Assembly: GCA_052327205.1 (NCBI GenBank)
Contig: CM126223.1
Location: 62,930,001 to 62,994,000, forward strand
Reading direction: 5' to 3'
DNA from: Somniosus microcephalus
Lineage: Eukaryota
DNA length: 64,000 nt
Positions 19,259 through 62,301 of this stretch are shown piece by piece. How positions within the stretch are numbered: position 1 is the stretch's first letter; the number at the start of each line of letters is the position of its first letter. A model generated the notes under the pieces. The model saw nothing but the letters and a program-made list of their open reading frames with translations. It searched no databases and was not told the origin of the DNA. The position numbers and the translations under genes are program-made.

Positions 19259-20969
19259 ATCACTCTCCTCCTCACTGTTCACTATACTTCCAAATTTTGT
19301 GTTATCTGCAAATTTTTAAATTATGCCCTGTACACCCACATCCAAATCATTAATTAATATATATCAAGAAAAGCAGTGGTCCTAGAACTGACCCCTGGGG
19401 AACACCATTGTATACCTTCCTCCAGTCCAAAAAACAACCGTTCACCACTACTCTCTGTTCCCTGTCACTTAGCGAATTCCGTATCCATGCTGCTACTGTC
19501 CCTTTTATTCCATGGACTTCAACTTTGCTGGCAAGCCTATTATGTGGCACTTTATCAAACACCTTTTGGAAATCCATGTACACTACGTCAACCGCATTAC
19601 CCTCATCAACCCTCTCTGTTACCTCATCAAAAAACTCAATCAAATTGGTAAAACACGATTTGCCTTCAACAAATCCGTGCTGGCTTTCCTTAATTAATCC
19701 ACACTTGTCCAAGTGACTGTTAATTTAGTCCCTGATTATTGTTTCTAAAAGCTTTCCCACTACTGAGATTAAACTGACTGGCCTGTAGTTGCTGGGTTTA
19801 TCTTTACACCCTTTTTTGAACAATGGTGTAACATTTGCAATTCTCCAGTCCTCTGGCACCACCCCCGTATCTATGGAGGATTGGAATATTATGGCCAGTA
19901 CCTCCGCGATTTCTTCCTTCACTTCCCTCAGTGTCCTAGGAGGGATTACATCCGCTCCTGGTGACTTATCTACTTTAAGTACAGCCAGCCTTTCTAGTAC
20001 CTCATCTTTATTAATTTTATCAATTTTTATACTATCAAGTGTCTCCACTACCTCCTCCTTCACTATGTCTATGGCAGCACCTCTTCCTTGGTGAAGACAG
20101 ATGCAAAGTATTCATTTAGTACCTCAGCCATACCCTCTCCTCTGCCTCCATGCACAGGTCTCCTTTTTGGTCCCTAATCGGCCCCACCCTTCCTCTTACT
20201 ACCCGTTTACTATTTATATGCCTATAGAAGACTTTTGGATTACCTTTTTATGTTGGCTGCCATTCTATTCTCATACCCTCTCTTTGCCCCTCTTATTTTC
20301 TTTTTCACTTCTCCTCTGATATTTCTGTATATAGCCCGATTCTCAGCTGCATTTGCAACCTGACATCTGTCATACGTGCTCTTTTTCTGCTTTGTAAAGT
20401 CTGTGGGTTGTGCAGTTAATAACGACACAGACTTCAGGAGTAACAAACAAACAGGACTTTACTATTCGAAGGTCAGGGCGAATCTGCCCTATAAATCATG
20501 CCACAGCACTTATATACCGGTGTGGTCACCGTCGGTATTACCGTATACAGAAGCCAAACAAGTAGTGCCACACCTAAAATAGTTCTCTTAAAGGTGAACG
20601 GTTACATACAATAGTCTCTTAAAGGTAGACGGTTACATACACTACAATCCTCCCTTTTTAGCTTACAACATACGTATTCCCCATTAAACATAACATATAT
20701 TCAACTTCATGTAAAACAATTTACAGATATAGTCTCTGCGGAAAACAGTTCACAGGTTCAGTCTCTGGTCTTGACTCGGTCCGAACAACATCTCTGTGGT
20801 GTAGCCGGTTCACATTGCTAGCGTGACTCATCCAATAGTCTTTCCCTTGACGTAACAGCTTGAACTTCCGTCCTGCTGAACCAGCAGTGCTGACTTTTAC
20901 AAACAGCTGGACTGCCTTCGTAATTTTTCCCTACTTTCCCATTAGAAGTAATAATGATTTAGATGGTTA

Positions 20970-22913
20970 TCATCTTCGGCTTCGTCTTTTCCTTTTTTGC
21001 TTCTTGGAGACTCTCGGGGCTCCCTTATCAGCTGCCAGCTGTAGCGCCACCATCTCCCTATGTTCTTTAGACTTTAAGTGCTTCATCCTGATTTCTGCAC
21101 TTTGGGAGTTTTCATCACAAGCTGGGCAGACCAAGTCCTCGTAATATTCCGTGTCACTCAACAGGTCATGGTAATATTCGGTGTCATCCTGAGCTAGTCC
21201 AGCGAGAGGGCCTGCTACTTCTTCCTTACCCAACTGGACGTTAGCCGACTGTTGTTCCCTCCCTAGACATCTTTCCTGAAGAGACTTCTTTATGCGTTCA
21301 TATTCATCCCACTCTTCCTGGGTTTCCTGCAAATCCTTCACTAATGACTTCAATACTTCCCCTTCCATCGGAGATTGATTGATCGGGCTATTCAATCCTT
21401 CTACTGGAGCATCTGTTTCAACAGTCTGTTGTTCCCATTGACGTGATTCAGCGTACTTTTGGCATCCCAGTAAAATCCGTGTTGCACCCTCAGCTATATC
21501 CGTAACTTTTGAGAGCTCCGAACTCCTTCCCTCTGAAGATTGAAGCTCGTGTTCAGATTGTTCCCATTGCAGAGTCTTGTCCCTCAACATATGAAGGAGT
21601 TGGCTGACCGTTAACTCTTCCGCGGGAACACTGTGAATCAGAGTCTTCTCCATTTCATCCACCTTTTCCTCCAATGCTTTCACCTTCTTTTCCTCTTGGA
21701 CTTTGGCTTTCAGCGCTCGGAGAAGTTGTGCCATGATGCTATCTAGCTCTTGTGCCATGATGCTCTCTAGCTCATGTCTTACAGTCTCTGTGTTTCTTAC
21801 AGTTTCCTTTTCTTCCGCTGAAAGGATTCCCAGTTGAATCTGTTCTTCAAGTTGTTGAACCTCGGTCATTGCCGCCTCATATTTGTCTTGGGTTTCCTTC
21901 AATAATTTTCTGAGTTCTTGGACATCTTGCCTTTCATGTTCTGCCATGTCTTTCACCTCTAATTTCTCCTCTATGGATGGAACTTCTACCGATGAGTCTG
22001 TCTTGGCCTTGAGCTCATCAAGAATTTCCTGCAGCCTTTGGACTTCTTGCTCATGTTCAACCTTTAGTTGCTCATATGCTTCTACTGAAACTAGCTTTTC
22101 GGAGGTTGCCGAGTTAACCCCCTCCAGAATTGTAGCCTGGGCCTGTTCATACTGTTCTTTCAACTTCTCACACTCTGCTTGTAAGGAGTCGTAGAGAAGA
22201 ACTGGAATAAAATCCTGGCTTCCTGAAGATTCCTCTTCATTTGCTTCTTTCGCAATTTTCTGTTGGAGTTCAGCCAAGGCTGCTATGCTATCTGCCTCTT
22301 GAAGTCTCACTGCCATCAAATCTTCTTTATTCTTGCAGTCTATCTCAGCCATTTTCCCTTTACTTTCATTTAACTGAGTGAGTAGTCCCTTATTCTGGGC
22401 TGAGAGATATTGCACCTTCTCCTGTAGAACATCGCACTCCTTCTCTGCTTGACATAGCTGGTTACTGCTGATTTGGTTCTGTGTTTCAAGTTCCAACATC
22501 CTTTGCTTAGCTTCTTTCAGTTTCGCCCCTATAAGCTCCTCTTGCAACATGGCCACATTATTCTCATCAGGTAAAGAAGCGTTTCTCTTTTCTATGTCCA
22601 AGATTTTTTTCTGCATCTCTTTAAGTGCACACTGCGATTCAGCTTCTCTTAACCTTGCCTGCACTAGCTCCGTCTCCAATTGCAGAACAAAATCCTCAGT
22701 GTAGCGTGGTTTGCCTTTATGCTGTATCTCTAGATCATGCAAATATTCTAACTCCTGAACATCATAAGGGAGATGTGATCGGTAATTGGTCACGATGGCT
22801 CTATGGTCGCTCTCTGCTTGAGCTAGCTGCTTCTGTTGTCTTTCCAGATTCTCCCATTTGGTGTCATAGAACTTTTTCATTGTTTTCATCTCTTGTACGA
22901 GACGGTAACTCAA
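20970..22913 (-). CDS. Element A cargo ORF: chimeric coiled-coil (STK10-, ANKRD24/RAI14-, EVI5-like) plus DNAJC21-like C2H2 finger
   Basis: 647-aa ORF in the same frame as the upstream protease, separated by a single TGA. Segments were recognised from recalled vertebrate protein sequences. Confidence 0.8.
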   Translation of the reverse strand: MSYRLVQEMKTMKKFYDTKWENLERQQKQLAQAESDHRAIVTNYRSHLPYDVQELEYLHDLEIQHKGKPRYTEDFVLQLETELVQARLREAESQCALKEMQKKILDIEKRNASLPDENNVAMLQEELIGAKLKEAKQRMLELETQNQISSNQLCQAEKECDVLQEKVQYLSAQNKGLLTQLNESKGKMAEIDCKNKEDLMAVRLQEADSIAALAELQQKIAKEANEEESSGSQDFIPVLLYDSLQAECEKLKEQYEQAQATILEGVNSATSEKLVSVEAYEQLKVEHEQEVQRLQEILDELKAKTDSSVEVPSIEEKLEVKDMAEHERQDVQELRKLLKETQDKYEAAMTEVQQLEEQIQLGILSAEEKETVRNTETVRHELESIMAQELDSIMAQLLRALKAKVQEEKKVKALEEKVDEMEKTLIHSVPAEELTVSQLLHMLRDKTLQWEQSEHELQSSEGRSSELSKVTDIAEGATRILLGCQKYAESRQWEQQTVETDAPVEGLNSPINQSPMEGEVLKSLVKDLQETQEEWDEYERIKKSLQERCLGREQQSANVQLGKEEVAGPLAGLAQDDTEYYHDLLSDTEYYEDLVCPACDENSQSAEIRMKHLKSKEHREMVALQLAADKGAPRVSKKQKRKRRSRR

Positions 22914-22928
22914 TTGTTCTAATTGTTG

Positions 22929-24304
22929 TCATTGTTCGGTGGAGTTCTGTTCTGAAACTTTGTTCTTCTCTGGAGCATAAGCCTTTATGCATGCCTTCGT
23001 TTTTCCAACCTTCGTCGGCAAGTCCATTTCAGCCTTGTCTTTCATATTTGGGTTGGTCTTATCGTCATCCGTTTCAGAATCTGAGCTGCTTGTCTGCACC
23101 GAGTCCTCACTCGTTATGGCTTTTAGATAGTGCCATTCCATGTCTATTTTCTTGATCCACTCCCGTCCTAGAAGTGGTGGTCCTCCCTCATGTAGTACGT
23201 ATAAGTTCATTCTTGGGTGTTCTTTACCCCTATCTCTCACTTTGACTCTTATCTTTCCCATGGGGTATACTTTATGCCCCTTGTATGTCTGCAATACGAA
23301 CTTGGTATCTCTTAAGGGTATATGTGAGAATAGCCGGTGGTAATCCCTTCGATTTATGACTGATAGAGCTGATTAAGTGTCCAACTCCATTTTCACTTGG
23401 ATTCCAGCTATTTTCAGCATGACCCAGATAGTTTGTAGGTCAGCTTCCTTACTCACATTGTGAATTCTCAGACTACCCAGCTCCTGGCCGTTTGGGTCTG
23501 AGTCTGAATTCTGTTCGTCTGAACTCTTCTCAGCCACCTTGTGTACCTTGTTGTACCTTTCCTGTGATGGCTTCCTTTGGTTGTTGGTCCTTTGGTTGTT
23601 GGTCCTTTGGTTGTTGGTCTTCTTCCCTGACCGGCATACCTTAGCTATGTGACCCAGTTTGCCACATTTCCTACATTCCTGGTTCTTAAACCAGCATTGG
23701 TTCTGGTCGTGTGTTGTCTTCCCACAACGATAGCATTTTGTTGTTGTCGAGGTAATTTGATCCACACTTAGTGCTGCTGTCTTTAGCTGCATTTCCGCAG
23801 TTCCCTTCACTGCGGCTTCGTGCGATGCTGCAATAAGGACAGCCCTGTCAAGTGTAAGGTCGTTCTTTTCGAGTAGTCGCTTTTGCGTTCCTTCCTTTGC
23901 CAACCCGCACACGAACTTGTCTCGCAATGCCTCTGTCAGATTCCCTCCAAACTGGCAGTATTTCGCTAGTCTACGCAGTTCGACCAAGTATTCTGCGTTG
24001 CTTTCGTCTTTCCATTGCGTTCTCGCATAGAATTTGAATCGTTCAGCCAACATCAACGGTGTAGGGTTCAAGTGGTCCTCAGGACAGCCACAATATCATC
24101 GAAAGTCTGATCCGCCGGTTTAGCTGGTGCTAGTAGATGCTTCAAGAGCCCGTATGTCTTTGCGCCCATCGAGTTCAGCAAGGTTATAGCTTTGTCATCT
24201 TCTTCTATTTTATTGGCCTCACAATAGATCTCAATGCGTTCCACGTACGTGGCCCAGTCTTCTACCTCGGAATTAAAATCATTGATGTTACCACGCTTAG
24301 GCAT
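22929..24304 (-). pseudogene. Element A gag-protease (one frameshift at ~24070; in-frame stops at 23373 and 22929)
   Basis: EDWATYVERIE, ERFKFYAR, LRDKFVCGL, CCHC knuckles CYRCGKTTH...C and CRKCGKLGHIAKVC; protease MELDT*S and LLGREWI. Confidence 0.9.
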
Positions 24305-24519
24305 CTTCCTCTCTTTGGGAACAACACAAGTATTTCTTTAAATTATTATTTCTTTTTTTTTCTAAGATGGCGGCTTTTCCCGCGAAAATGGCGGTTTCCC
24401 GCTCTTTCCTTCTCTCCCCGCCCCTTCAATGGCGGTTTCCCGCGTCTGTCATCTTCTCCGCCTAATGGCGGCTTCCCGCGTTTCTTCCCTGGTGGGAGGG
24501 GTACGCTTTCCCCACAGCG

Positions 24520-24815
24520 GACAGGTTCAGCCGCTGGGCTGGCTCTCGCACAGTTCCCCTTACTCGGCTCTGTCTCTCTCTCCCGCTCGCACGGCTCTAC
24601 CGGCTCTGGGTACACCCCGTTGACGGAGAACAGTTCAGCCGCTGGACTGGCTCTCGCGCAGTCTCTCTCCCCTTGCTCGGCTCTGTCTCTCTCTCTCCCG
24701 CCCACTCGGCTCTACCGGCGCTGGGTACTCCCGTTGGCGGAGAACAGTTCAGCCGCTGGACTGGCTCTCGCGCAGTCTCCCTTGGTCGGCTCTGTTTCTC
24801 CCGCACGCTCGGTTC
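24520..24815. repeat. Tandem ~110-bp GC-rich units in the leader of element A
   Basis: Three copies of gttcagccgctggRctggctctcgcRcagt...cggctctgtYtctc. Confidence 0.8.
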
Positions 24816-27619
24816 CCATTCGCCTCCCAGCCCTCTCGCAGTCCGGTGCTTCCCTCCCCGGCTGCGGCTGAGTTTCTCTCTTCCCGCGCCTACGCTCCCA
24901 GTCTCAGCGCTTCGTGGCTTCGGTCGCTGCCCGGCTTTCCCGTCGATCGTGGTCTGGCTGTCTCACGACGCCGTTGGACCCGACTTTCCGTCCGGCTCCT
25001 TTCCCCCTCAACCGTGGTCGAGTGCACAGCCCTTATCCTCCGGATATTCTTTACACTTTCCCTTACTCACAGTCTCCGTGGCCGCCTTGCTTCCTGCTGA
25101 TCGGCTCACTCCGCACCGTGGCAGAAGGGACAGTCAGTGCCTGTTGCTGATGGAAGCTTTTGTTGCTAAGTCTTCCTCCTTTCTATTGCTGCAGCCTCGT
25201 GTTTTCTCCCAGCAGAACGACGAGGGCGGTTGCCTCTCTTCGACGCTCTTTAGTTGCTTTGGTAGTCTTGCCGCAGGGTACGATCGGACTCGTCGCCACT
25301 GTAAAGTCTGTGGGTTGTGCAGTTAATAATGACACAGACTTCAGGAGTAACAAACAAACAGGACTTTACTATTCGAAGGTCAGGGCGAATCTGCCCTATA
25401 AATCATGCCACAGCACTTATATACCGGTGTGGTCACCGTCGGTATTACCGTATACAGAAGCCAAACAAGTAGTGCCACACCTAAAATAGTTCTCTTAAAG
25501 GTGAGCGGTTACATACAATAGTCTCTTAAAGGTAGACGGTTACATACACTACATGCTTCATCACATTGGCTATCTGTTTCGTCATCCAGGGAGCACTGAC
25601 TTTAGTTGCCCTACCTTTCCCCCTCGTGGGAATGTACCTCGACTGTACCCGAACTATTTCCTCTTTAAAGGCAGCCCATTGTTCCACTACAGTTTTGCCT
25701 GCCAATCTTTGATTCAAGTTTACCCGGGCCAGATCCGTTCTCATCCCACTGAAATTGGCCTTCCCCCAGTTAAACATTCTTACTCTAGATTTCTCCCTGT
25801 CCTTTTCTATAGCTAATTTAAACCTTATGATACTATGATCACTGTTCCCTAAATGTTCACCTACTGACACCTACTCCACTTGACCTACCTCATTCCCCAG
25901 AACCAGATCCAGCAATGCCTCCTCTCTCGTTGGACCGGAAACATACTGATCAAGAATGTTCTCCTGAACACACTTCAGAAATTCTTCCCCTTCTCTGCCC
26001 TTTACACTATTACAATCCCAGTCTATATTACGATAGTTGAAGTCCCCCATTACCACTACTCTATAGTTCTTGCACCTCTATGTAATTTCTCTGCAAATTT
26101 GCTCCTCCATATCTTTCCCACTATTTGGTGGTCGAGAGAATACACCTAGTAGTGTAATGGCACCTCTATTATTTCTTAACTCTAGCCATATAGATTCTGT
26201 CCTTGACCCCTCCAGGACATCCTCTCTCTCCAGCACTGAAACGTTCTCCTTAACCAATACTGCCACAGCACCTCCTATCTTTTCTTCCCTATCTTTCCTG
26301 AACACCTTATATCCAGGAATATTTAATATCCAATTCTGCCCTTTTTTGAGCCAGGTCTCAGTTATTGCCACAACATCATGTGGCAATTTGTGCCTGCAGC
26401 TCACTTACCTTGTTTCCTATGCTTTGTGCGTTCACATGCATACACTGTAAACCCATCTTAGACCATCCTGTATTCTCGCTTAGTTGGACCCCACCTAATA
26501 CCTTACTATTTCTTAGTGCTCTCTGCCTCTCCCAATTCCCCTTTCTAATGTTACATCCTGGTGCCCATCCCACTGCCAAATTAGTACTTTCAGTTAATGA
26601 CCCCCCTTTTGACTTCCCACTTCCTGCCCAGCAGGTAGCTCGGAGAAACCCGTGCTAGGCAGTGCCAGCTAATGTGCCACTGCCCCAAGGCAATACAATA
26701 ACTGCACACGAGGCTGAAAATCAATGACATTCCTTTATAGCTATTTATAACTGGATTACATCCTGTCATGTGATATCAAATTAAAGGGTGTTGCATTTAG
26801 ACAGAGTTAATCATTTAAAAATCTGCAACCCAGCAATTTTCCAAAATGGCTGCTTCTGATTCCCAGAATATGTCGAGTTCAGTATTCGGTAAATGAAAAC
26901 TTCCCAAAAACATCTAAACCTAATCCCTGTAACACTGTGCTTGACAATTAAAATAGATTCTGGTACGTTTTCTTCTTAAAATTTGCATTTAAAGTCAGTG
27001 ATCTATGGTTGCCAAGGACCCATCTGTTGTTTCTACAGGCCCCTGTTTGAGTCGGCTGGAGTTGTTTTGAGTGTGACTGGATTAGAGTGCCACACACTCC
27101 TGCTAAACATGTGGCTGATCCTTCAGAAACATTTTATAAATCTGTATTAAAGTTGCAGCCTGCCTGATGAGCTCATGGATCGGTGCACTGCCAACTAACC
27201 ACACAGGTGCACTGAGGCATTCAGAACAGAAGGCCCTCGGTTTAAATCACTGGTCTGAACTGAGTTAACTGACCACGGTTAGGGCAGGAATTGTAGTGCG
27301 ATAATTGGCTTCAATGCCCCAGGCCAAGGAGGGGAAATAGTCAGGCCTGTTCCTCATTACTATCCAGTGAGCTCTAAAGTGTGTGTGTGTATAGAAAGGG
27401 CTAGATATTAGGTAAAGGCAGATTTGGGTTGGGTCTGTGAAGTCTGTAGTGTCTAGCCATCGCTCAGTTGGTAGCACTCTCGCCTCTGAGTCAGAAGGTT
27501 GTGGGTTCAAGTCCCACTCCAGAGACTTTAGCACAAAGATCTAGGCTGACACTCCCAGTGCAGTGCTGAGGGAGTGCTGCACTGTCACAGGTGCCGTCTT
27601 TTGGATGAGACATTAAACC

Positions 27620-30600
27620 TGTAATGTATGTACCTTTAAGGGAGAGAACTACTTTTTACAGCTCCTGTATACTGTAGTACCGGCAGTGACCACACCTGTA
27701 TATAAACCCTGAGTAGGGATCTGTACACTTAGTTCTAGAGTAACCCTCATTCAGTAAACACCTGTTGATCGTTCCCTGCAGTCTCTTGTCTAATTATTGA
27801 AGGACACAACATCAAGATACACGGATCTAACATTGGCGACGAGCAGATTCAAACCTACCTGCAACTCTGCATCACCTCCCAGGGATTCGCTCCTGGAGAA
27901 CAGTGGAAGAAGGCAGAGTCCAGAAGCACGGGCGTCGACCACGGGAAACCCCCCAGTCATCCAGCGGAGATTTGCGCATCGCAGGGGAGGCTGTCGAGAG
28001 CCAGGCTTGGCTTTCCAGTCACGGTGGTCCAGCGAAACGGGCTGGCAACAGGTACTGCGCTGACCCTTCCCGGACAGCGGCGGCTAGAGCCGAGCGACGG
28101 CACAGAAAAAGGCTGAGCAGCGTCGACGGGGGAGAGAGGGTAGAGTGCACAGGGCGCAGCCGGTGTTCAGGACCGAGCGGCGTCAACAAGAGAGAGCAGA
28201 GCGCTGCCGTGGTTCAAGGGCCGAGCAGCGTCAACGGGGGAGAGAGGCGCGCAGGAAAATGCGCAGAGCGCAGCCGGTGTTCAAGGGCCGAGCAGCGTCA
28301 GCGGGGAAGAAAGGAAAGCGTGGGAGACGCCATTTTAAGCCGCAGCGGGGAAGAAAGGAAAGCGCGGGAGACGCTATTTTAAGCCAGTCTAACCACACCC
28401 AAAAATGCCGAAGAGTGGCAGTATCACAGCGTTTGACAATGAAGTCGAAGATTGGATGACATATGTCGAACGCATAGAAGTATACTGCAAGGAGAATGAA
28501 GTGCCAGATGACAAGAAAGCGCTGGTATTGTTGAATTCAATGGGTGCAAAAACGTATGGCTTACTACGAAACCTAGTAACCCCAGAGAAGCCAGTGGAAA
28601 AGGATTTTGAAAACATAGTGTCAATCCTACAGGACCACTTAAACCCCACACCGCTGCTGATAGCAGAAAGATTTAAGTTTCACAAAAGGAACCAGCATAA
28701 AGATGAAAGTAATGCTGAGTATTTAACGGAACTGCGCAAGCTATCGAAACACTGCCAGTTTGGAACGGGACTAGCAGATACTTTAAGGGGCAAGTTTGTG
28801 TGTGGGCTTCAAAGTGAAGGAACCCAGAAACGGCTTCTATCAGAAAAGGATCTTATGCTGGACAAGGTTTTCAGCATTGCAGTATCACACGAAGCAGCAG
28901 CACGGGGCGTGGCAGAGATACAACGGAGACCACAAGAATATGGCACAAATGAAATGTCATACGGAACAGTGAAGTGCTATCGCTGCGGCAGAACAACACA
29001 CGACCATAATGATTGCTGGTTCAAGGACAAGTGTGCAGACAGTGTGGAAAAGTAGGACACATAGCAAGAGTCTGCAGGTCGGGAAAGAAAACCAGCAGCA
29101 AGAAATCTCCACAGGAGAAGTACAAGAAGGTACATAAGGTGACGGAGAGTAGTTCAGACGAACAGAAAAGTGATACAGACTCCGGAAGCAAGGAGCTGGG
29201 TTGTCTGAAACTACATAATGTGATCAAAACGGAGGATCACCAAACTATCTGGGTCACGCTCAAGATAGCAGGAGTCCAAGTGAAAATGGAATTGGACACA
29301 GGATCAGCCCTAACAGTCATAAACCGAAGGGACTACAAGCGGCTATTCTCACATATACCCTGAGAGATACAGAGATTGTCTTGAAGACGTACATGGGGCA
29401 AAAAGTCTACCCCAAAGGAAAAATAAGGGTGAACGTTATATATAACGGCAAGGAAACACCAAAAATGGACCTATATGTATTGCCAGATGGAGGACCACCA
29501 CTACTAGGACGTGAATGGATCCGGAAAATACAGCTAGATTGGCATTCCATACAAGCACTGACTGTAAATGCCAAAAAGGATGACTACGTCACACCTGGAC
29601 GACTGTCAAAAATGCTAACTGACGCACAAGAAGTGTTCCAGCAGGGACTCGGAACACTAAAAGGCATAACAGCGACGATCAAAATAGAGGAAAATGCAAG
29701 CCCAAAGTTTTTTAAGGCCAGACCGGTACCTTATGCAATCCGCTCAGCCGTCGAAGCAGAGCTGGAAGGTTTGGAACGTTCAGGAGTACTGTCCAAAGTG
29801 GACTGGAGCGAGTGGGCTACACCCATCATTCCTGTAATGAAGAGTTCATTGAGTAATACGCCTGGGGAACCAAAGAAGGTTAGCATCTGTGGGGACTTTA
29901 AAGTGACAGTGAACCCAGTCCTTCACACTGTACAATATCCGCTTCCGCGGATTGAAGATATTTTCGCCTCGCTATCTGGAGGGAAACGCTTCACTAAGAT
30001 TAATCTGGCCCAGGCGTACCTGCAAATGGAGGTAGAAGAAGCCTCGAAACAGTACCTCACGATCAACACTCATAAAGGTCTCTACCAATACAATTGGCTG
30101 GTGTTCGGGGTAGCATCAGCTCCGGCTATTTGGCAAAGGGCAATGGATCAAGACCTGCAAGGGATTCCAGGGACCCAGTGTTATTTGGACGACATCCTGG
30201 TCACGGGCGAAAATGACAGTGATCACCTCGCCAACCTGGAGCAGGTGCTCACTAGATTAAAGGAATATGGGCTCCGAGCTAATCGCCACAAATGCGAGTT
30301 TTTCCAGAAGCAGATCTCGTATTGGGGCCACGTTATTGATAAAGAGGGGTTACATAAGTCCCCTGAAAAGATTGAGGCAGTAGTCAAGGCTCTGGCACCG
30401 GAAAATGTGTCACAACTGAGGTCGTTCCTCGGGCTGGTGAACTACTACCATAAGTTCTTGCCGAATTTGTCTACAGTACTACACCCACTGAACACCCTAC
30501 TGCAAACGGGGGTACCATGGAAGTGGAGTGACGAATGTAAACGAGCTTTCCAGAAGAGCAAAGCATTGATCACATCAAAAGAGGTGTTGGCTCATTTCAA

Positions 30601-32677
30601 CCCAGCACTACCAATTCGGTTGGCGTGTGACGCATCACCCTATGGCATTGGAGCGGTGCTGTCGCACAAATTCCCGGACGGCTCGGAGAGTCCAGTAGCC
30701 TTTGCGTCTCGGTCACTAACCTCAGCCGAGCGTAACTACGCCCAGATTGACAGGGAGGCCCTCAGCCTAGTGTGGGGAGTGAAAAAGTTCAATCACTATC
30801 TGCACGGGCAGAAGTTCACCTTGCTGACTGCCCACCAACCACTTGTCTCCATCTTTAATCCAAAGAAGGGCGTTCCGGTGATGACTGCGCAACGGCTACA
30901 AAGATGGTCCCTTTTTCTAGGGGCGCACCAATATGAAATCGAGTATAAGGGCACGAAACAGCATGGAAACGCTGATGGGCTATCACGCCTGCCACTGCCT
31001 ACTGCGGAGGAAGCACCAGCAGTGGATCCTGTCGAAATATTTCATTCGACTATAATTGAATGCTTGCCAGTAACTAACGCTGATATAGAGAAGGAGACCC
31101 GAAATGACCCGACACTATCTCGGGTATATGATTTGACGGTGAAGGGATGGCCAGCACATGGCGACTCACTGTTGCCAGCATTCTCATCCAGAAGAGAACA
31201 GCTGTCAGTATGCCAGGGGACCTTGATGTGTGGATCCCGAATGGTAATTCCACCCAAGTTAAGGGAGAGAGTGCTCAATGAGCTTCACGAAGGTCATCTG
31301 GAAGGGGTGAAAATGAAAAACCTTGCTCGGGCTTATGTGTGGTGGCCGGGGATCGATCAGCAAATTGAGGACCTGACAAAGAGCTGCTCAGGATGCCAGA
31401 AGGTCCAAAATGCACCACCACATGCCCCTCTACACCCATGGGAGTGGCCCTCATCTCCATGGCAATGGGTGCATATTGATTTTGCTGGTCCATTCATGGA
31501 CTCAATGTTTTTAATAGCCGTGGATGCGCACTCGAAATGGCCTGAGGTGATCAAAATGTCCTCCACCACCACGGAGAAAACTATTGCAGTCCTACGGACC
31601 ATTTTTGCCAGGAACGGCTTGCCAGAGCAGATTTGCTCTGATAACGGACCACAGTTTGTGTCCGAAGAGTTTCGAAGATTTATGAAAAGGAATGGGGTTA
31701 GGCATTACACATCCGCCCCGTATCATCCAGCCACAAATGGATTGGCTGAGAGGTTCGTACAAACCTTTAAAAAAGCAGTAAAGGCCATGTGCGATGACGA
31801 CATTCCACTGCAGCATAAGGTGGACAATTTCCTGTTAGCCCACAGAAATGCGACACATGCAGCCACCAACCAGGCCCCGGCCATGATTTTCTTTAACTGA
31901 AGGTTGAGATCTCGTCTGGATTTGCTCAGACCAAATGTACGAAGAGATGTTGAGAATAAGCAATTCCAGCACATCAATGAGAAGCCGACAAGGAGCTTCA
32001 ATGTAGGGCAACCAGTCTTGGCCCGTGACTACTGAACAGAGAAATGGCAACCAGGAACGATATGCACACAGCAGGGCCCACTAATGTACACAGTGGATGT
32101 TGGGGAGAACATTGTGAGACACCATGCTGACCAGATCCTAGAGTCACAGGAACGAGTCAACCCCATGTCTCGGCCATACGTACCTGGTGAGGAACCCGAC
32201 GTACAGGTCGCATCTACCCCAGAAACAGTAGCATCGGAAGCTGATGAACCAACCGACGACAGGGGGCCAGAATCGCCTCCGCACCAAGAGCAAGACACTC
32301 GGGAAAGGCGCTATCCAGAAAGGATCAGGAAGCCTCCCCAAAGACTGAATTTATAAATAGACTATTTTCAGCTAATGTTGCATGTTAAAAGTGTTAATTG
32401 TAATTAGTTGATATTTAGTTGTTAAATGAGTGTTATGGTACTGTTAATCTAAAAGGGGAGGAATTGTAATGTATGTACCTTTAAGGGAGAGAACTACTTT
32501 TTGCAGCTCCTGTATACTGTAGTACCGGCAGTGACCACACCTGTATATAAACCCTGAGTAGGGATCTGTACACTTAGTTCTAGAGTAACCCTCATTCAGT
32601 AAACACCTGTTGATCGTTCCCTGCAGTCTCTTGTCTAATTATTGAAGGACACAACATCAAGATACACGGATCTAACA
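27620..32677 (+). mobile_element. Mag-type Ty3/Gypsy LTR retrotransposon B (autonomous structure, this copy disrupted)
   Basis: 213-bp LTRs at 27620-27832 and 32465-32677 (1 difference by eye); TSD AAACC; PBS TGGCGACGAG at 27834-27843 (matches the tRNA-Ser(GCU) 3' end); PPT aaaaggggagga at 32451-32462. Confidence 0.95.
28405..32356 (+). pseudogene. Element B gag-pol (gag, PR, RT, RNase H, integrase)
   Basis: Gag CCHC; LDTGS; RT YLDD; RNase H DAS...NYAQIDRE; integrase HHCC and HIDFAG/SDNG/NGLAE. Frameshifts at ~29030 and ~29360, stops at 31898 and ~32034, and KINL / TAHQ in place of KIDL / TDHQ. Confidence 0.92.
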
Positions 32678-46378: not shown

Positions 46379-48621
46379 AGTGCATTGGCTGCTGTTATAT
46401 AGGCACTTGCAGTAGCCATTTTGCACACAGGAAGATCCTACAAACAGCAAGATGAATGACTGATTAATCTAATCAATCTTTGGTTGTGCTGGTTGAGAGT
46501 GGAATGTTGACCCGTACATCTGAGGTAACTCCCTACTTTTCAAATAGTGCCATGGGATCTTTAACATCCACCTGAACCAGCAGACAAGACCTTGATTCGA
46601 TAGGAATGAAGATGCTATGATCCCACACTTCCAGTGTGGAAGTTACACTCGCGAGGAGCACAGGTCTGAGATGGGACTACAAGATAGAGCCCTGATTCTT
46701 TGAACCACAATAACTGTTAGCACATCTATCTGCCAGAAGTGGGTATCATGCCTAATCCAAAGAACAGTACTTATGGCAATGCAGGAGACTCTCAGTACTG
46801 TTTTGAAGTAGTGTTTGAGCCCACAACCTTCTGAATCTGAGGTGAGAGTGCAGAATGGAATTCAAATGATATTAATGCATCAGGCTCCATGTTCAAATGT
46901 AGTCAAGCAATTTCACAACATAGAAACATAGAAGATAGGAGCAGGAGTAGGCCATTCGGCCCTTCGAGCCTGCTCCGCCATTCAATGAGATCATGGCTGA
47001 TCATTCAAATTCAGTACCCTGTCCCTGCCTTCTCCCCATATCCCTTGATCCCTTTAGCCTTAAGAAATATATCCAACTCTTTCTTGAATATATTTAATGA
47101 ACTGGCCTCCACCGCCCTCTGTGGCAGAGAATTCCACAGGTTCACCACTCTTTGGGTGAAGAAATTCCTCCTCATTTCAGTCCTAAATGTCCTACCCCTT
47201 ATCCTTAGACTATGACCCCTGGTTCTGGACTCCCCGACCATCAGGAACATCCTTCCAGCATCTAGTCTGTCCAGGCCTGACAGAATTTTATAGGTTTCGA
47301 TGAGATCCCCTCTCAATCTTCTAAACTCCAGTGAGTATAAGCCCAATCGACGCAATCTCTCCTCATACGTAATTCCTGCCATCCCAGGTATCAACCTGGT
47401 GAATCTTCGCTGCACTCCTTCCATGGCAAGAACGTCCTTCCTCAGATAAGGCGACCAAAACTGCACACAATACTCAAGGTGCGGTCTCACCAAGGCCCTG
47501 TACAACTGTAACAAGACATCCTTATTCCTGTGTTGTGTATGTAACCGTTTACCTTTAAGGGAACTATAGAATGTAACCGTTCGCCTTTAAGAGCACTACT
47601 TTAGGGTGGCACTATCTATTGGCTCATGTATACTGTAATACCGATAGTGACCACACCAGTATATAAGGGTTGTGATACGTTAACTAGGGCAGAAATCGCC
47701 CAGACCTCTGAATAGTAAAGACCTGTTTTGTTTGTACTTCTAAAGTCTCTGAAGTTATTTACTGCACAACCTACAGACTTTACAGTGGCGACGAGTCCGA
47801 TCGTACCCTGCGGCAAGACTAACCAGTAGCAGAGAGCTTCAAAAAGAAAACAGGAGGCTCCGTCTACTAAAAGTATAGTACTTACTGGAAGCTGGAAGAT
47901 TAACAGCAAAGCTGCGGCAGCAACAGGCACAAATTACCCTGCTACCACATCTTGAGCGAGCCAATCAGCCTAAAACAAGGCGGCCGAAGAGACTGTGAGT
48001 AGTTAAAACAAATAAATTTTTAAAAAAACGGGGTAGAAGTATTTGGAGGAGAAGGGCAAAGCATTCGGGTCCAACGGCGTCGGGTGACAGCCGGACCGCG
48101 GGCAATGTGAGAAGCCGTGCAGCAACCGCTGCCACGAAGCGCTGAGCCTGCGAGTAGGCGCGGGAGTGTCAGAGCCGAGAGCTGCGCGAGCGGGGGAGCC
48201 AGAGCCGAGCGGGAGGCGTTGCAAGCCAGCGATCGCATCTCCAGATAAGGGCCGAGAGCCGCGAGAGCGATCGGATCTACAGATAAGGGCCGGCAGCCGC
48301 TTCGCGATCCAGCGATCGCATTATAGATAAGGGCCGCACTCGGGCTGACAGACGGCGTCGGGGGACCGGGTGAAGACCGCCAAGCGCGGGAAAACCGCCA
48401 TTGAAGTGGGCGGGGAGAGCGAGAAGCGCGGGAAAGCCGCCATTTTTCGGGGAAAACCGCTGAAGAAGAAGGAAGAAGCGGGAAACCGCCATCTTGGAAA
48501 TTATTAAGAATTTCAGGAAAGTAATAAGATTTTTCAGAAAGGCTGGTGTGTTCTCAAGAAGAGAGAAGAAAATTAATAATAAGTAAAGTAATACTTGTAC
48601 TGTTCTCAAAAAGAGAAGAAG

Positions 48622-50559
48622 ATGCCTAAGCGAGGAAATATTAATGACTTTAATGCAGAAATAGAAGACTGGGCCACGTATGTGGAACGCATAGAAATAT
48701 ATTGCGTAGCCAACGAAATTGAGGATGACAACAAGGCAATAACTTTGTTAAATTCGATGGGAGCAAAAACATACGGGCTTTTGAAACATCTAATAGCACC
48801 AGTTAAACCAGTGGACCAGACCTTCGAAGAGATCGTAACAGTGTTGAAGGATCACTTGAACCCCACACCGTTGATGCTGGCTGAACGATTTAAATTTTAC
48901 ACCAGAACCCAGAGGCAAGATGAAAGCAATGCGGAATACTTAGTCGAACTGCGTAAGCTAGCGAAATACTGCCAGTTTGGAAGGAATTTGACAGAGGCGC
49001 TGCGGGACAAGTTCGTATGCGGCTTGGCCAAAGAAGGAACGCAGAAGCGACTTCTGGAAGAAAACGACCTCACACTGGACAGGGCTGTCCTCATAGCTTC
49101 ATCGCACGAAGCCGCAGCGAAAGGGACGGCGGAAATGCAGCTAAAGGCGGCGGCACTCGGGGTGGACCAAATGACTGCAAGCATTTCCAAATGCTACCGT
49201 TGTGGAAAGACAACGCACGACCAGAATCAGTGCTGGTTTAAGAATCAAGAGTGCAGGAAATGTGGCAAACTGGGTCACATCGCGAAGGTATGCAGGTCCA
49301 GAAAGAAGACCAACAAACAAAGGAAGCCACCACCACAAGAAAAGTACAACAAGGTGCATCAGGTGGCTGAAAAGAGTTCAGACGAACAAAATTCAGACTC
49401 AGACCCAAACAGCCAGGAGTTGGATAGTCTGAGAATCCACAATGTGGGTAAAGTAACTGATCTACAGACGATCTGGGTCACACTAAAAATAGCTGGAGTC
49501 CAAGTACGAATGGAGCTGGACACGGGATCAGCTGTATCAGTCATCAACCAAAAGGACTACCACCGACTATTCTCTCACATACCCTTAAGAAATACCAAGT
49601 TCGTATTACAGACATACACGGGGCATCGCGTATACCCCATGGGGAAAATAAGAGTCAAGGTGAGAGATAGGGGTAAAGTACACCCAAGAATGAATTTGTA
49701 CGTACTACCTGAGGGAGGACCACCACTTCTAGGACGGGAGTGGATCAAGAAAATAGACATGGAATGGCACTACCGACAAGCAATGACGAGTGAGGACTCG
49801 GTGCAGACAAGCAGCTCAGACTCTGAGCCGGAAGACGATAAGTCCAGCTTATGTATGAAAAACAAGGTTAACATTAACTCACAGACTAAGGTTGGAAAAT
49901 CGATGGCGTGCATAAAGACAGAGAATTCTGAGTCTGTTCAAGCTACAGACATATGCATTACGGAGGAACACCGGGCTCGAACTCAACGCTATTTCAAAGT
50001 ACAACAACAATTAGAACAATTAAGTTACCGCCTCGTACAAGAGATGAAAACAATGAAAAAGTTCTATGACACCGAATGGGAGAGCCTGGAAAGACAACAG
50101 AACCTACTGGCTCAAGCAGAGAGCGACCATAGAGCCATCGTGACCAATTACCGATCACATCTCCCTGATGATGTTCAGGGGTTAGAATATTTGCATGATC
50201 TAGAGATACAGCAGAAGGGCAAATCACGCTGCACTGAGGATTTTGTTCTGCAATTAGAGACGGAGCTAGTGCAGGCAAAGTTAAGAGAAGTTGAATCACA
50301 GGGTGCTCTTAAGGAGATGCAGAAACAAATCTTGGACATGGAAAAGAGAAACGCTTCTTTACCTGATGAGAATAATGTGGCCATGTTGCAAGAGGAGCTT
50401 ATAGGGGCGAAACTGAAAGAAGCTAAGCAAAGGATGTTGGAACTTGAAACGCAGAACCAAATCAGCGGTAATCGGCTATGTCAAGCAGAGAAGGAGTGCA
50501 AGGGTCTACATGAGAAGGTGCAATATCTCTCAGCCCAAAATAAGGGACTACTCAGTTAA
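48622..50559 (+). CDS. Element C gag-protease fused in frame to STK10-/ANKRD24-/EVI5-like coiled coil
   Basis: One ORF runs MPKRG...CCHC x2...LDTGS...LLGREWI...EEHRART...EDFVLQLETELVQ...SAQNKGLL. It ends at a 4-bp deletion (actcactc to actc) relative to element A. Confidence 0.88.
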   Translation: MPKRGNINDFNAEIEDWATYVERIEIYCVANEIEDDNKAITLLNSMGAKTYGLLKHLIAPVKPVDQTFEEIVTVLKDHLNPTPLMLAERFKFYTRTQRQDESNAEYLVELRKLAKYCQFGRNLTEALRDKFVCGLAKEGTQKRLLEENDLTLDRAVLIASSHEAAAKGTAEMQLKAAALGVDQMTASISKCYRCGKTTHDQNQCWFKNQECRKCGKLGHIAKVCRSRKKTNKQRKPPPQEKYNKVHQVAEKSSDEQNSDSDPNSQELDSLRIHNVGKVTDLQTIWVTLKIAGVQVRMELDTGSAVSVINQKDYHRLFSHIPLRNTKFVLQTYTGHRVYPMGKIRVKVRDRGKVHPRMNLYVLPEGGPPLLGREWIKKIDMEWHYRQAMTSEDSVQTSSSDSEPEDDKSSLCMKNKVNINSQTKVGKSMACIKTENSESVQATDICITEEHRARTQRYFKVQQQLEQLSYRLVQEMKTMKKFYDTEWESLERQQNLLAQAESDHRAIVTNYRSHLPDDVQGLEYLHDLEIQQKGKSRCTEDFVLQLETELVQAKLREVESQGALKEMQKQILDMEKRNASLPDENNVAMLQEELIGAKLKEAKQRMLELETQNQISGNRLCQAEKECKGLHEKVQYLSAQNKGLLS

Positions 50560-50576
50560 ATGAAAGTAAACGGGAA

Positions 50577-51584
50577 ATGGCTGAGATGGACTGCAAGAAT
50601 AAAGAAGAGTTGATGGCAGTGAGACTTCAAGAGGCAGATAGCATAGCAGCCTTGGCTGAACTCCAACAGGAAATTGCGAAAGAAACAAATGAAGAGGAAT
50701 CTTCAGGAAGCCAGGATTTTATTCCAGTTCTTCTCTACGACTCCTTACAAGCAGAGTGCGAGAAGTTGAAAAAACAGTATGAACAGGCCCAGACTACAAT
50801 TCTGGAGGGGGTTAACTCAGCAACCTCCGAAAAGCTAGTTTCGTTGGAAGTATATGAGCAACTAAAGGTTGAACATGAGCAAGAAGTCCAAAGGCTGCAG
50901 GAAATTCTTGAGGAGCTCAGGGCCAAGACAGACTCATCGGTAGAAGTTCCATACATAGATGAGGATGTAGAGGTGAAAGACATGGCAGAACTCATCAAAA
51001 TATGGAAGGAAGCCCAAGACAAATATGAGGCGGCAATTACCGAGGTTGACCGACTTGAAGAACAGTTTCAACTGGGAATGGGCCCTGAACATGAGCTAGA
51101 GAGCATCGAGGCGCAACTTCTCCAAGCACTGGAAGCCAAAGTACAAGAGGAAGAGAAGATGAAAGCATTGGAGAAAATGATGGATGAAATGGAGGAGTAC
51201 GCTGAATTACGTCCAGGGGAACAGGAGAATGGGGAAACAGCTACTTCAGTAGAAGGATTAAATAGCCTGATAACGAAATCCCTGAAGGAAGGGAAAGGAT
51301 TGAACGCACAAATGAGGCCAGGAGGGAAGGAAGGGCAGACATCCGAGGAAGAGCAGGATGAATATGATTGCTTGAAGAAGGGTTTTGACCTGTTGAGTGA
51401 CACCAAATGTTATGAGGATGTGGTCTGCCCAAATTGTGATGGGAACTCCCAAAGTGCTGAAATCCTGAGGAAGCACTTAAGGTCTAAGGAACATAGAGAG
51501 TTGGTGGCGCTACAGATGGCAGCCGGGAAAAGAGCTCGGAGAGTTTCAAAAAGGCAGAAAAGGAAAAGAAGAAGCAGAAAATAA
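50577..51584 (+). CDS. Element C cargo continuation (EVI5-like end, ANKRD24/RAI14-like, DNAJC21-like finger, basic tail)
   Basis: Collinear with the element A ORF 20970-22913; separated from the upstream ORF only by the 4-bp frameshift. Confidence 0.8.
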   Translation: MAEMDCKNKEELMAVRLQEADSIAALAELQQEIAKETNEEESSGSQDFIPVLLYDSLQAECEKLKKQYEQAQTTILEGVNSATSEKLVSLEVYEQLKVEHEQEVQRLQEILEELRAKTDSSVEVPYIDEDVEVKDMAELIKIWKEAQDKYEAAITEVDRLEEQFQLGMGPEHELESIEAQLLQALEAKVQEEEKMKALEKMMDEMEEYAELRPGEQENGETATSVEGLNSLITKSLKEGKGLNAQMRPGGKEGQTSEEEQDEYDCLKKGFDLLSDTKCYEDVVCPNCDGNSQSAEILRKHLRSKEHRELVALQMAAGKRARRVSKRQKRKRRSRK

Positions 51585-51783
51585 TAACTGTTTAAAATAT
51601 TATTACTTCTACTACCTCAGTCCGAACACTACGAAAGGTGCTAAATTTGTAAAAAAAATCCAGGGACATTATCAAGACAGCCAGTGGGTTGTATAAGTCC
51701 GCACTGCTGGTTCAACAGGACGAAAGTACAAGCTGTTAAAAAAAAAAAGGCTATGGAGGATGCTGTCTGGAACGAATTAATAC

Positions 51784-51945
51784 CAGAGACTGAATTTATG
51801 AACTGTTCCCACAGAGACTGAACCTGTAAACTGATTCCACTGAGAGTATGTTTGTAAACTGTTATATGACGTTGACTCCATTGAGAGTATATCTGTAAAT
51901 TGTTATATGACGTTGACTCCATCGAGAGTATATCTGCAAACTGTT
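51784..51945 (+). repeat. Short tandem repeats in the 3' region of element C
   Basis: cagagactgaa...taa/tga twice, then gactccatYgagagtatatctgYaaa units. Confidence 0.7.
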
Positions 51946-52939
51946 TATATAAAGTTGAAGATTGTATGTTTAACGGGATTCTGTAAGTAATAAGCTAGGA
52001 AGGGAGGAGTGTTGTGTATGTAACCGTTTACCTTTAAGGGAACTATAGAATGTAACCGTTCGCCTTTAAGAGCACTACTTTAGGGTGGCACTATCTATTG
52101 GCTCATGTATACTGTAATACCGATAGTGACCACACCAGTATATAAGGGTTGTGATACGTTAACTAGGGCAGAAATCGCCCAGACCTCTGAATAGTAAAGA
52201 CCTGTTTTGTTTGTACTTCTAAAGTCTCTGAAGTTATTTACTGCACAACCTACAGACTTTACATCCTGTACTCGAACCCTCTTGCTACGAAGGCCAACAT
52301 ACCATTTGCCTTCTTAACCGCCTGCTGCACCTGCATGCTTACCTTCAGCGACTGGTGCACAAGAACACCCAGGTCTCTTTGCACTTCCCCTTCACCCAAT
52401 CTATTGCCATTCAAATAATAATCTGCCTTCCTGTTTTTGCCTCCAAAGTGGATAACCTCACATTTATCCACATTAGAGTGCATTTGCCATGTTTCTGCCC
52501 AATCACCTAACCTGTCCAAATCGTACTGGAGTTTCATGACATCCTCCTCACAGCATACCCTCCCACCCAGCTTTGTGTCATCTGCAAATTTGGAGATATT
52601 ACATCCAATTCCCTCATCCAGATCATTAATATATATTGTATATATATACAACCCTCGCAGAATGATGTGTTGAGTTTGGCCAACTGACAGTTTTCTTTTC
52701 CTTCCCCCAGGATGACTCAAAAATAACAAAGTCTTCCTTAGGGACAGCTTCAAAAGCAAATGTCAGTTGAAAGTAGTATTCAAAACTGAACTCTGATAAT
52801 CAAGAGCCCAACACAGGACTGTTGTAGCTGCCAGGCAGTCAAATGGATAATGAAAACAGATGAGTGGAGTGAAACTTTAATTAACAGCCATGAGAGCCTA
52901 GCACCCGACGACTATCTCGGGCAAAGTTGTGCTCATGTT

Positions 52940-61715: not shown

Positions 61716-62301
61716 AACAACAGAAAATGTTGGAAAAACTCAGCAGGCCAGGCAACATCCGTGGAGAGAAAATAGAGTCAACGTTTCGGGTCAAACTCTT
61801 TGTCAAGACTAGAAAAGCACAGGAAATGAAATAGATTAAGAGGCTGGGCTGGGAGAGAACAAAAGAGAAGTGAAGAGACATTAAGAGGTATTCAAAACGA
61901 GACGAGATGGTGATCGGACTAGTGGAGACAAAAGATGGCTCTAGATTAGGTGTGAAATGCGCTGGCAGAATGGGGGACAGCTGCCATGTGGGAGAGAAAC
62001 CCCATTCTGCCAGCGGATTTCACACCTAATCTAGAGACGTCTTTTGTCTCCACTAGTCCTATCACCATCTCGTCTCGTTTTGAATACCTCTTAATGTCTC
62101 TTCACTTCTCTTTTGTTCTCTCCCAGCCTGGCCTTTTAATCTATTTCATTTTCTGTGCATTTTCAGTCTTGACAAAGGGTTTGACCCGAAACGTTGACTC
62201 TATTTCTCTCTCCACGGATGTTGCCTGGCCTGCTGAGTTTTTCCAGCATTTTCTGTTGATATTTCGGATTTCCAGCATCTGCAGTATTTTGCTATCGCAC
62301 T
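61716..62301. mobile_element. Penelope-like foldback element with hammerhead-like motifs
   Basis: ~260-bp inverted arms (61718-61975 and 62000-62260); 12-bp flanking direct repeat aatgttacaagt (61704-61715, 62302-62313). Confidence 0.8.

Follow-up and report, generated by a model that had tools for sequence, protein, structure and literature searches.

Non-autonomous LTR retrotransposons in a shark genome with nested host exons in place of pol, three sets of which likely derive from circular RNAs

Acutely transforming retroviruses are defective, helper-dependent elements in which host cDNA replaces pol and is fused to gag. LTR-mediated retrocopies are known from metazoans and include a mouse retrocopy composed of four genes (Tan et al. 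2016; PMC5131818); the main text of that article nowhere uses the word "circular". In maize, the LTR element Bs1 contains partial exons of three host genes, and its hybrid open reading frame is named in the title of a reference (PMC5131818; PMC5408686). In mouse, pseudogenes derived from circRFWD2 have been described, the mechanism of their formation being called "mysterious" in the text of the report (Dong et al. 2016; PMC4897178). An earlier note on the DNA analysed here, made from the sequence alone, was aware of no described family of its kind, but multi-gene in-frame cargo of LTR elements has precedents in Bs1 and the mouse retrocopy, as described in PMC5131818.

The window studied is a stretch of 64,000 nucleotides from Somniosus microcephalus (GenBank assembly GCA_052327205.1, contig CM126223.1, positions 62,930,001 to 62,994,000, forward strand). 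With good confidence, we interpret its element C and related copies as non-autonomous LTR retrotransposons in which nested, spliced host exons have taken the place of pol; three sets of these exons likely stem from circular RNAs by template switching of reverse transcriptase (RT) within the particle. Like acutely transforming retroviruses, they have host cDNA in place of pol and presumably depend on a helper; unlike these, they are gypsy-type, no env was seen in the element, and the cargo is nearly neutral and comes from several donors. With the retrocopies of Tan et al. (2016), as far as described in PMC5131818, they share spliced host sequence in place of the internal open reading frame, microsimilarity where templates were switched, chimeras of several genes, a sense and in-frame bias and secondary retroposition; in the shark, however, back-spliced units read for a single turn are among the donors, the inserts are nested, and there are thousands of copies with a graded series of intermediates. 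Bs1 likewise carries exons of several host genes in an LTR element; it is a plant element with 1-5 copies, whereas the shark superfamily has drawn its cargo from at least eight sources, numbers at least 2,938 copies and has back-splices, which the descriptions of Bs1 in PMC5131818 and PMC5408686 do not mention. The circRFWD2 pseudogenes, as presented in PMC4897178, also have a back-splice fixed in DNA, no poly(A), an LTR nearby and multiple copies; in the shark, by contrast, the putative circle lies inside an element with LTRs, target-site duplication (TSD), primer-binding site (PBS) and polypurine tract, the cargo is part of the gag-protease frame, and entry and exit microhomologies are visible, three times.

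Element C (47531-52263, plus strand) is bordered by a 5-bp TSD (47526-47530 and 52264-52268). Judged by the flanking reading frames, its insertion site lies inside a LINE fragment. The 5' and 3' LTRs (47531-47784 and 52010-52263), of the form TG...CA, are identical at 254/254 positions and enclose a PBS (47786-47795), a gag region with two zinc knuckles (48622-49340, 3' end approximate), an aspartyl protease (49477-49740; PF13650 above cut-off), cargo in the same reading frame as the protease, and a polypurine tract (51997-52009). Element A (20393-25553, minus strand), a member of a sister subfamily with cargo nested in the same way, has LTRs identical at 252/254 positions, a 5-bp TSD, a frameshift in gag and two stops. 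Element B (27620-32677, plus strand) is a damaged pol-bearing relative (PR-RT-RNase H-IN) with LTRs identical at 212/213 positions and a 5-bp TSD. In the Pfam analysis, zinc knuckle and aspartyl protease were found in C, and RT, RNase H and integrase in B only. LTR alignment and domain assignments thus bear out the earlier note in that C and A have LTRs, 5-bp TSDs, gag and protease, and that, in place of RT, RNase H and integrase, the protease frame runs on into the cargo; they do not agree with its view of C as one continuous frame, which is broken near 50545-50560 in EVI5 exon d. The homology to B that it had proposed exists, but B belongs to a different, neighbouring protease clade, and the nearest pol-bearing relative sampled is copy L082, which has a gag-pol frame of 1,321 aa and, in the protease tree, is nested among the cargo elements. 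Complementarity of the PBS to a tRNA-like 3' end extends over 25 nt in some copies; the tRNA had been named as tRNA-Ser, an isotype that we likewise assume, while ARAGORN detected no tRNA gene at the seven loci tried. C and A can be classed as young, non-autonomous LTR retrotransposons of the Ty3/gypsy type, within which their clade is presumably Mag-like.

The cargo consists of intronless exons of five host genes, each mapped to an intron-containing gene in the same genome, and introns are excised exactly in the pieces. The donors are an STK10-like gene, whose identity was reached via the PKK family and a retrocopy, an ankycorbin-like gene (E=7e-47), EVI5 (E=1e-65), optineurin and a zinc-finger gene. 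In element C, all pieces lie on the plus strand. The STK10-like piece (49789-50103) comprises part of exon S2, joined by an in-frame microhomology deletion to S3, and a forward splice to S4. It is followed by a first ankycorbin-like piece (50101-50195), in which the end of exon K-2 is spliced to K-3 and a back-splice at 50178/50179 links K-3 to the beginning of an upstream large exon. The EVI5 insert (50196-50677), one turn of a five-exon unit of 678 nt, contains the tail of exon e, a back-splice at 50211/50212, exons a and b, an in-frame 192-nt deletion, and exons c, d and e. The second ankycorbin-like piece (50678-51200) continues the large exon with in-frame deletions of 24 and 51 nt. An eroded optineurin piece in forward order (51195-51380, 3' end approximate), of which four exons are recognisable in element A and six in sister copies, and a C2H2 finger with basic tail and stop (51385-51584, 5' end approximate) complete the frame; a non-coding remnant of exon S2 (approximately 51695-51770; 20827-20899 in A) closes the putative outer circle. 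The cargo of A is nearer to the host exons, its EVI5 exons being 96-99% identical where matched in full.

The STK10/LOK-like and EVI5-like segments named in the earlier note were thereby traced to host exons, its ANKRD24/UACA-like and ANKRD24/RAI14-like segments, listed there as two, both belong to the one ankycorbin-like gene, and its unassigned segment is optineurin. The finger and basic tail, compared there to DNAJC21, map to the zinc-finger gene, which we take to be DNAJC21 because of the two-finger layout of that protein; the first finger exon and the J-domain were not found within 260 kb around the gene, a region that holds a 500-N gap. A route via PF21884 led to another gene, presumably DNAJC2, which has no cargo match and was ruled out as donor. 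PDB sequence searches with the whole cargo and with the optineurin-finger tail of copy L036 gave no match, and a homologue search with cargo residues 440-530, a short and composite query, gave 0/52 candidates. Among 127 matches in a representative-protein search, the 12 examined were EVI5-family proteins or unrelated finger repeats, none being a gag-cargo fusion. The protein searches retrieved no single host protein covering the whole cargo, and the collinearity with one host gene that would have spoken against a mosaic was looked for and not encountered. Cargo content varies freely and includes Ig repeats in some copies.

The back-splice junction within the ankycorbin/EVI5 block has 1,831 exact copies and an STK10 24-mer 2,938, the reversed control being 0 in both cases; dispersed copies in such numbers indicate secondary retroposition. 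LTR pairs differ by 11 mismatches in 3,801 nt (0.3%), 8/15 pairs are identical, and 13/15 further copies have a TSD, the other two being unclear. Spread without an own pol has been very recent, and the identity of LTRs suggests that mobilisation in trans may continue today. One open frame is present in 24 of 30 copies elsewhere, these being the best of 1,412 candidates and a sample that leans to young copies; it measures 890-998 aa.

These long frames might mean that the mosaic is selected as a protein, with a coiled coil as spacer or decoy and a tail like those for nuclear import or RNA binding, which would be compatible with the capture of circles. The donors are mostly coiled coils, the Arg/Lys-rich tail arose through two different terminal frameshifts, and dN/dS of the cargo of A versus host is 0.48-0.67 (p=0.02 at the higher value), behind which weak constraint on the cargo or host-side purifying selection may stand. 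Against this, dN/dS between C and A is 0.85 for the cargo (0.75-1.5 by block) and 0.14 for gag-protease, the values for five lineages versus host are 0.56-0.90, with 0.87-0.90 in three of them (higher transition weight), cargo content is freely variable, Ig repeats included, and some stretches are read in a shifted frame that is then compensated. Purifying selection on the captured coding sequence, as expected for a functional chimeric retrogene, was not found; with so little amino-acid constraint, a functional cargo protein is unsupported, and we regard selection of the protein as unlikely. The constraint on gag-protease may partly date from pol-bearing lineages, because the blocks differ in synonymous distance (0.06 to 0.48). 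The frame itself is kept at 21/28 non-splice junction types, which are not independent, and in-frame joins may be favoured by the microhomology between coding sequences as such. In a census of variants with little power (30 C-type copies; four shared cargo variants), 3/4 shared indels and 12/32 singletons were in frame. The frame is not strictly needed: one frameshift is common to two copies on different contigs, and a 315-nt deletion in gag to 8/30 copies.

Back-splices occur at exact GT/AG sites of the host genes, K-3 being joined to the large exon in the ankycorbin-like gene, exon e to exon a in EVI5, and S4 to S1 in STK10 (in sister copies; 25/77 of the copies examined); non-colinear joins at true splice sites thus involve three donor genes. 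The EVI5 insert has its two ends at neighbouring bases of exon e, its 486 nt and the 192-nt deletion adding up to the 678-nt unit, and the STK10 entry and exit points overlap by 14 nt in exon S2, so that in both inserts the entry and exit sites coincide, which amounts to one complete round of a circle. The inserts lie within the frame and have no poly(A), and the only exons matched in them come from between the back-splice ends. The back-to-front joins at exact splice sites make it likely that three of the five donors were circular RNAs rather than linear mRNAs; the optineurin and finger pieces show no back-splice and are both in forward order, so not all donors are demonstrably circular. If the reversed joins came from linear exon-repeat or trans-spliced mRNAs, the remaining mechanism would be unchanged, and exon repeats would formally yield an identical insert of one unit, each repeat containing the microhomology site once. 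Two forward-only donors would fit this, as would the sequencing-run contigs examined, in which no host back-splice or circle was seen; none of the runs listed as holding element sequence is on record as RNA. In run X13, a 680-nt contig is bounded by the five EVI5 exons, and no back-splice joint is listed for it. Linear templates would, however, require three such rare transcripts from three genes, the host exons are single-copy across 94-160 kb of each locus apart from one inserted element, i.e. without genomic exon duplication, and scrambled splice junctions mostly belong to circles; we consider linear templates quite improbable. That genomic fragments were captured as DNA, that the mosaic is a host gene in its own right, or that it is an assembly artefact, a repeat-rich 6.4-Gb genome being generally hard to assemble, has negligible probability and is refuted by splice-exact joins with exact intron removal and by 1,831 dispersed copies that have TSDs of their own, with contigs of independent runs bridging cargo junctions and no one host protein covering the cargo.

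The pieces sit within one another. The oldest insert is one turn of STK10-like exons in place of RT, RNase H and most of integrase, and the exon site of its entry and exit resembles both break points in pol. The zinc-finger, optineurin and ankycorbin-like pieces entered later inside the STK10 insert, and one turn of EVI5 exons sits inside the ankycorbin-like piece. Intermediates survive without EVI5 (copy L034, and in other sequencing runs), without ankycorbin, with STK10 only, and with STK10 and finger; blocks have been swapped between subfamilies. The serial capture of at least four unrelated mRNAs that had been proposed is therefore right as to several unrelated host RNAs, but these are nested and three donors resemble circular RNAs. 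Microhomology of 6-11 nt (raw lengths) is found at the seven inter-gene joins read. Host circles would be co-packaged with the element RNA, RT would switch template onto them inside the particle, and RT and integrase would be supplied by relatives that still have pol, for example of the L082 type. The frame may be kept because translation almost to the 3' end probably makes an RNA more stable or improves its packaging; the cargo would then act mainly as open-frame filler. Doubtful, in our judgement, is the further-reaching idea that particles prefer host circular RNAs and form an exon-shuffling engine, with phase-symmetric circles read for one turn in frame, a mosaic Gag-protease-cargo protein made from thousands of loci and a replication edge conferred by the re-invented basic tail.

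What the family adds to the precedents is three nested putative circles in one element, an unusually clear record of how circular RNAs would be written back into DNA. It offers a candidate nucleotide-level mechanism for circRNA-derived pseudogenes, left open in the text of PMC4897178, that recurs in one lineage whose intermediates survive. Three specific circles become targets for searches in shark RNA, and in a defective element, selection for an open frame can be told apart from selection for the protein. Annotation, too, calls for care, since this family carries intronless fragments of host genes by the thousand. In a preprint on a large shark genome, OPTN is listed with single-exon duplicates that have LINEs or LTRs on their flanks, which the passages concerned read as retrogene expansion (10.1101/2024.09.09.611499); passengers of elements such as those described here could explain such counts.

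Elements C (47531-52263, plus strand) and A (20393-25553, minus strand) are non-autonomous LTR retrotransposons in which pol is replaced by host exons, the cargo, and element B (27620-32677, plus strand) is a pol-bearing relative. As claimed in the earlier note, C and A possess TG...CA LTRs (254/254 and 252/254 identical, respectively), 5-bp target site duplications (TSDs), a primer site, and a polypurine tract, and B has the same features. In Pfam, a zinc knuckle and a protease were found in C, and reverse transcriptase, RNase H, and integrase in B only. The cargo directly follows the protease in frame, as that note had it, but the frame is no longer open throughout: it is lost near 50545-50560 in C, and A is damaged. 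The primer site of C (47785-47810) is unlike that of most C-type copies (comparison with L155-L166), and some copies show a 25-nt match to a tRNA-like end; 5' ends appear to have been swapped between subfamilies.

The proposed mosaic of unrelated host genes was borne out, since exons of five donors were located in the same genome and their edges read at each gene. The protein searches suggested in the earlier note identified EVI5 (E=1e-65; host gene on contig C3) and an ankycorbin/ANKRD24-like gene (E=7e-47; C13), best cargo matches being to sharks and rays throughout. The STK10-like gene on C8, which we take to be STK10 rather than SLK, was reached through the PKK family and a retrocopy. Optineurin on C17 was recognized by an upstream NEMO-family domain, its exons, and PDB optineurin peptides (E=5e-4), and the zinc-finger gene on C1, presumably DNAJC21, is the sole genome match to a splice-aware pattern and has a second finger downstream. 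Compared with the host genes, the cargo exons are joined with introns excised exactly. The host optineurin exons as assembled (L131:4760-5380) carry two additional bases near one junction relative to the element copies and are thus out of frame, owing to either an assembly error or a damaged allele. An intronless 3' part of the STK10-like gene lies beside a LINE outside the element family (L054, C3:354658271-354658942). One copy without EVI5 (L034:3070-7961) is inserted antisense in its own ankycorbin-like donor gene, in the intron between two exons that it carries itself.

In three of the five donors, exons are joined backwards. For the ankycorbin-like gene, A, C, and L034 have exon K-3 connected by its donor end to the acceptor start of a large upstream exon, whose natural upstream neighbour is a different exon. 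In EVI5, the donor end of exon e is joined to the acceptor start of exon a; the insert starts and ends at neighbouring bases inside exon e, and its 486 nt together with an in-frame 192-nt deletion make up the 678-nt five-exon unit. In STK10, exon S4 is joined to upstream S1 in sister copies (25 of the 77 copies examined), and the insert enters and leaves at one S2 site, which is similar to both break points in the pol of L082, an intact relative; this S4-S1 junction is gone from A, C, and L034, which keep the closing S2 remnant behind a stop. Searches of 94, 160, and 100 kb found each host exon once, with the exception of one inserted element, and the optineurin and finger pieces have their exons in forward order. 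Circular RNAs of the three donors are quite probably the origin of their pieces. In the public run X13, which is RNA by guess, stems from another organism, and has no coverage of gag and LTR, each cargo piece is covered by separate host-like contigs, including a 680-nt contig whose edges are exactly the five EVI5 exons; it fits a circle, but alternative splicing at both edges as well. This ambiguity and the lack of a back-splice joint among the X13 contigs listed were counted against a firm call. The serial capture of mRNAs claimed in the earlier note stands as to several unrelated host RNAs, but the inserts are nested and three donors are likely circular.

LTR-mediated retrocopies with microsimilarity and multi-gene chimeras, as well as maize Bs1 (PMC5131818), back-spliced pseudogenes near LTRs with the mechanism left unexplained (PMC4897178), a suggested link between the two (PMC5408686), and OPTN copies of a single exon in a shark, close to LINEs or LTRs (10.1101/2024.09.09.611499), are described in the available parts of these sources; the available part of 10.1101/2025.06.08.657570 holds nothing bearing on the element family. 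Searches of openly accessible full texts listed no account of the family or of nested circle capture. What is likely new is a variant of LTR-mediated retroposition with three likely circular donors nested in one frame.

The 77 copies include STK10-only, STK10 plus finger, and STK10 plus optineurin plus finger forms, the last also with ankycorbin (L034) and then EVI5. The seven inter-gene joins read have microhomologies with raw lengths of 6-11 nt. Side branches carry Ig repeats inside STK10 S1 (L055, L090, L098, L099; e.g., G000:C8:62222001-62230000; best PDB match titin, E=3e-51), a myosin-tail-like coiled coil of about 640 nt inside S4 (L100-L105, L107-L109, L112; PF01576 and myosin matches), presumably cingulin-like and in frame in all nine copies scored, or an in-frame insert of about 470 nt with another, C2HC-like finger between protease and STK10 piece (L056, L063, L091, L097, L099). 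Synonymous distances between A and C are 0.06 for ankycorbin/EVI5, 0.27-0.30 for STK10 and optineurin-finger, and 0.48 for gag-protease, which indicates that blocks were exchanged. In a protease tree (310 columns, 21 rows; L101 left out as too short), a single supported group unites all elements with cargo and the pol-bearing L082 and leaves B outside; being midpoint-rooted only, the tree names no donor.

The family is real, large, and very young. In the 6.45-Gb genome, the proposed count of copies and intact frames gave 1,412 candidates with a 601-nt cargo query, all 40 scored being about 100% identical, and a single open gag-protease-cargo frame of 890-998 aa in 24 of the 30 copies fetched, which are the best 30 and hence skewed to young. 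Exact patterns matched at least 1,831 times for the ankycorbin/EVI5 junction and at least 2,938 times for an STK10 24-mer (lower bounds; reversed controls 0). Among 15 full-length copies, LTR pairs show 11 mismatches in 3,801 nt, with eight pairs identical, and a TSD is visible in 13, the other two being ambiguous. Ten public runs with three organism labels contain at least roughly half of the cargo words, and their contigs span cargo junctions; one of these runs may be the source sample.

The frame is kept by 21 of 28 non-splice junction types, each seen in at least two copies and not mutually independent; the seven exceptions comprise three at the 3' end, two in an optineurin exon in which the host assembly is off frame, and two across one insert with copy-specific breaks. 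Between A and C, dN/dS is 0.85 for the cargo vs. 0.14 for gag-protease. For cargo vs. host exons, the ratio spans 0.39-0.65 across five lineages without weighting and 0.56-0.90 when transitions count threefold, and its departure below 1 is supported (p=0.02) for A alone. Two pol-less lineages have a gag-protease dN/dS of 0.30, to which recombination with pol-bearing elements could contribute. A 315-nt gag deletion is common to 8 of the 30 copies and a frameshift to two, one being the window copy, and both groups still spread. We read this as a favoured frame with largely free cargo content; the frame may be favoured through RNA decay or packaging during translation, and a functional cargo protein seems improbable. 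Two different terminal frameshifts (L090-L129; window 51540-51584) each lead to an Arg/Lys-rich tail, one of them changing the integrase C-end and the other lying after the finger exon of both A and C.

The window also contains an almost perfect inverted repeat of 206 nt around a 24-nt spacer (61770-62205) and, on the minus strand, a near-complete non-LTR element (5855-11324) with a zinc-knuckle ORF1 and endonuclease and reverse transcriptase frames, which we assume to be Tx1/L1-like.
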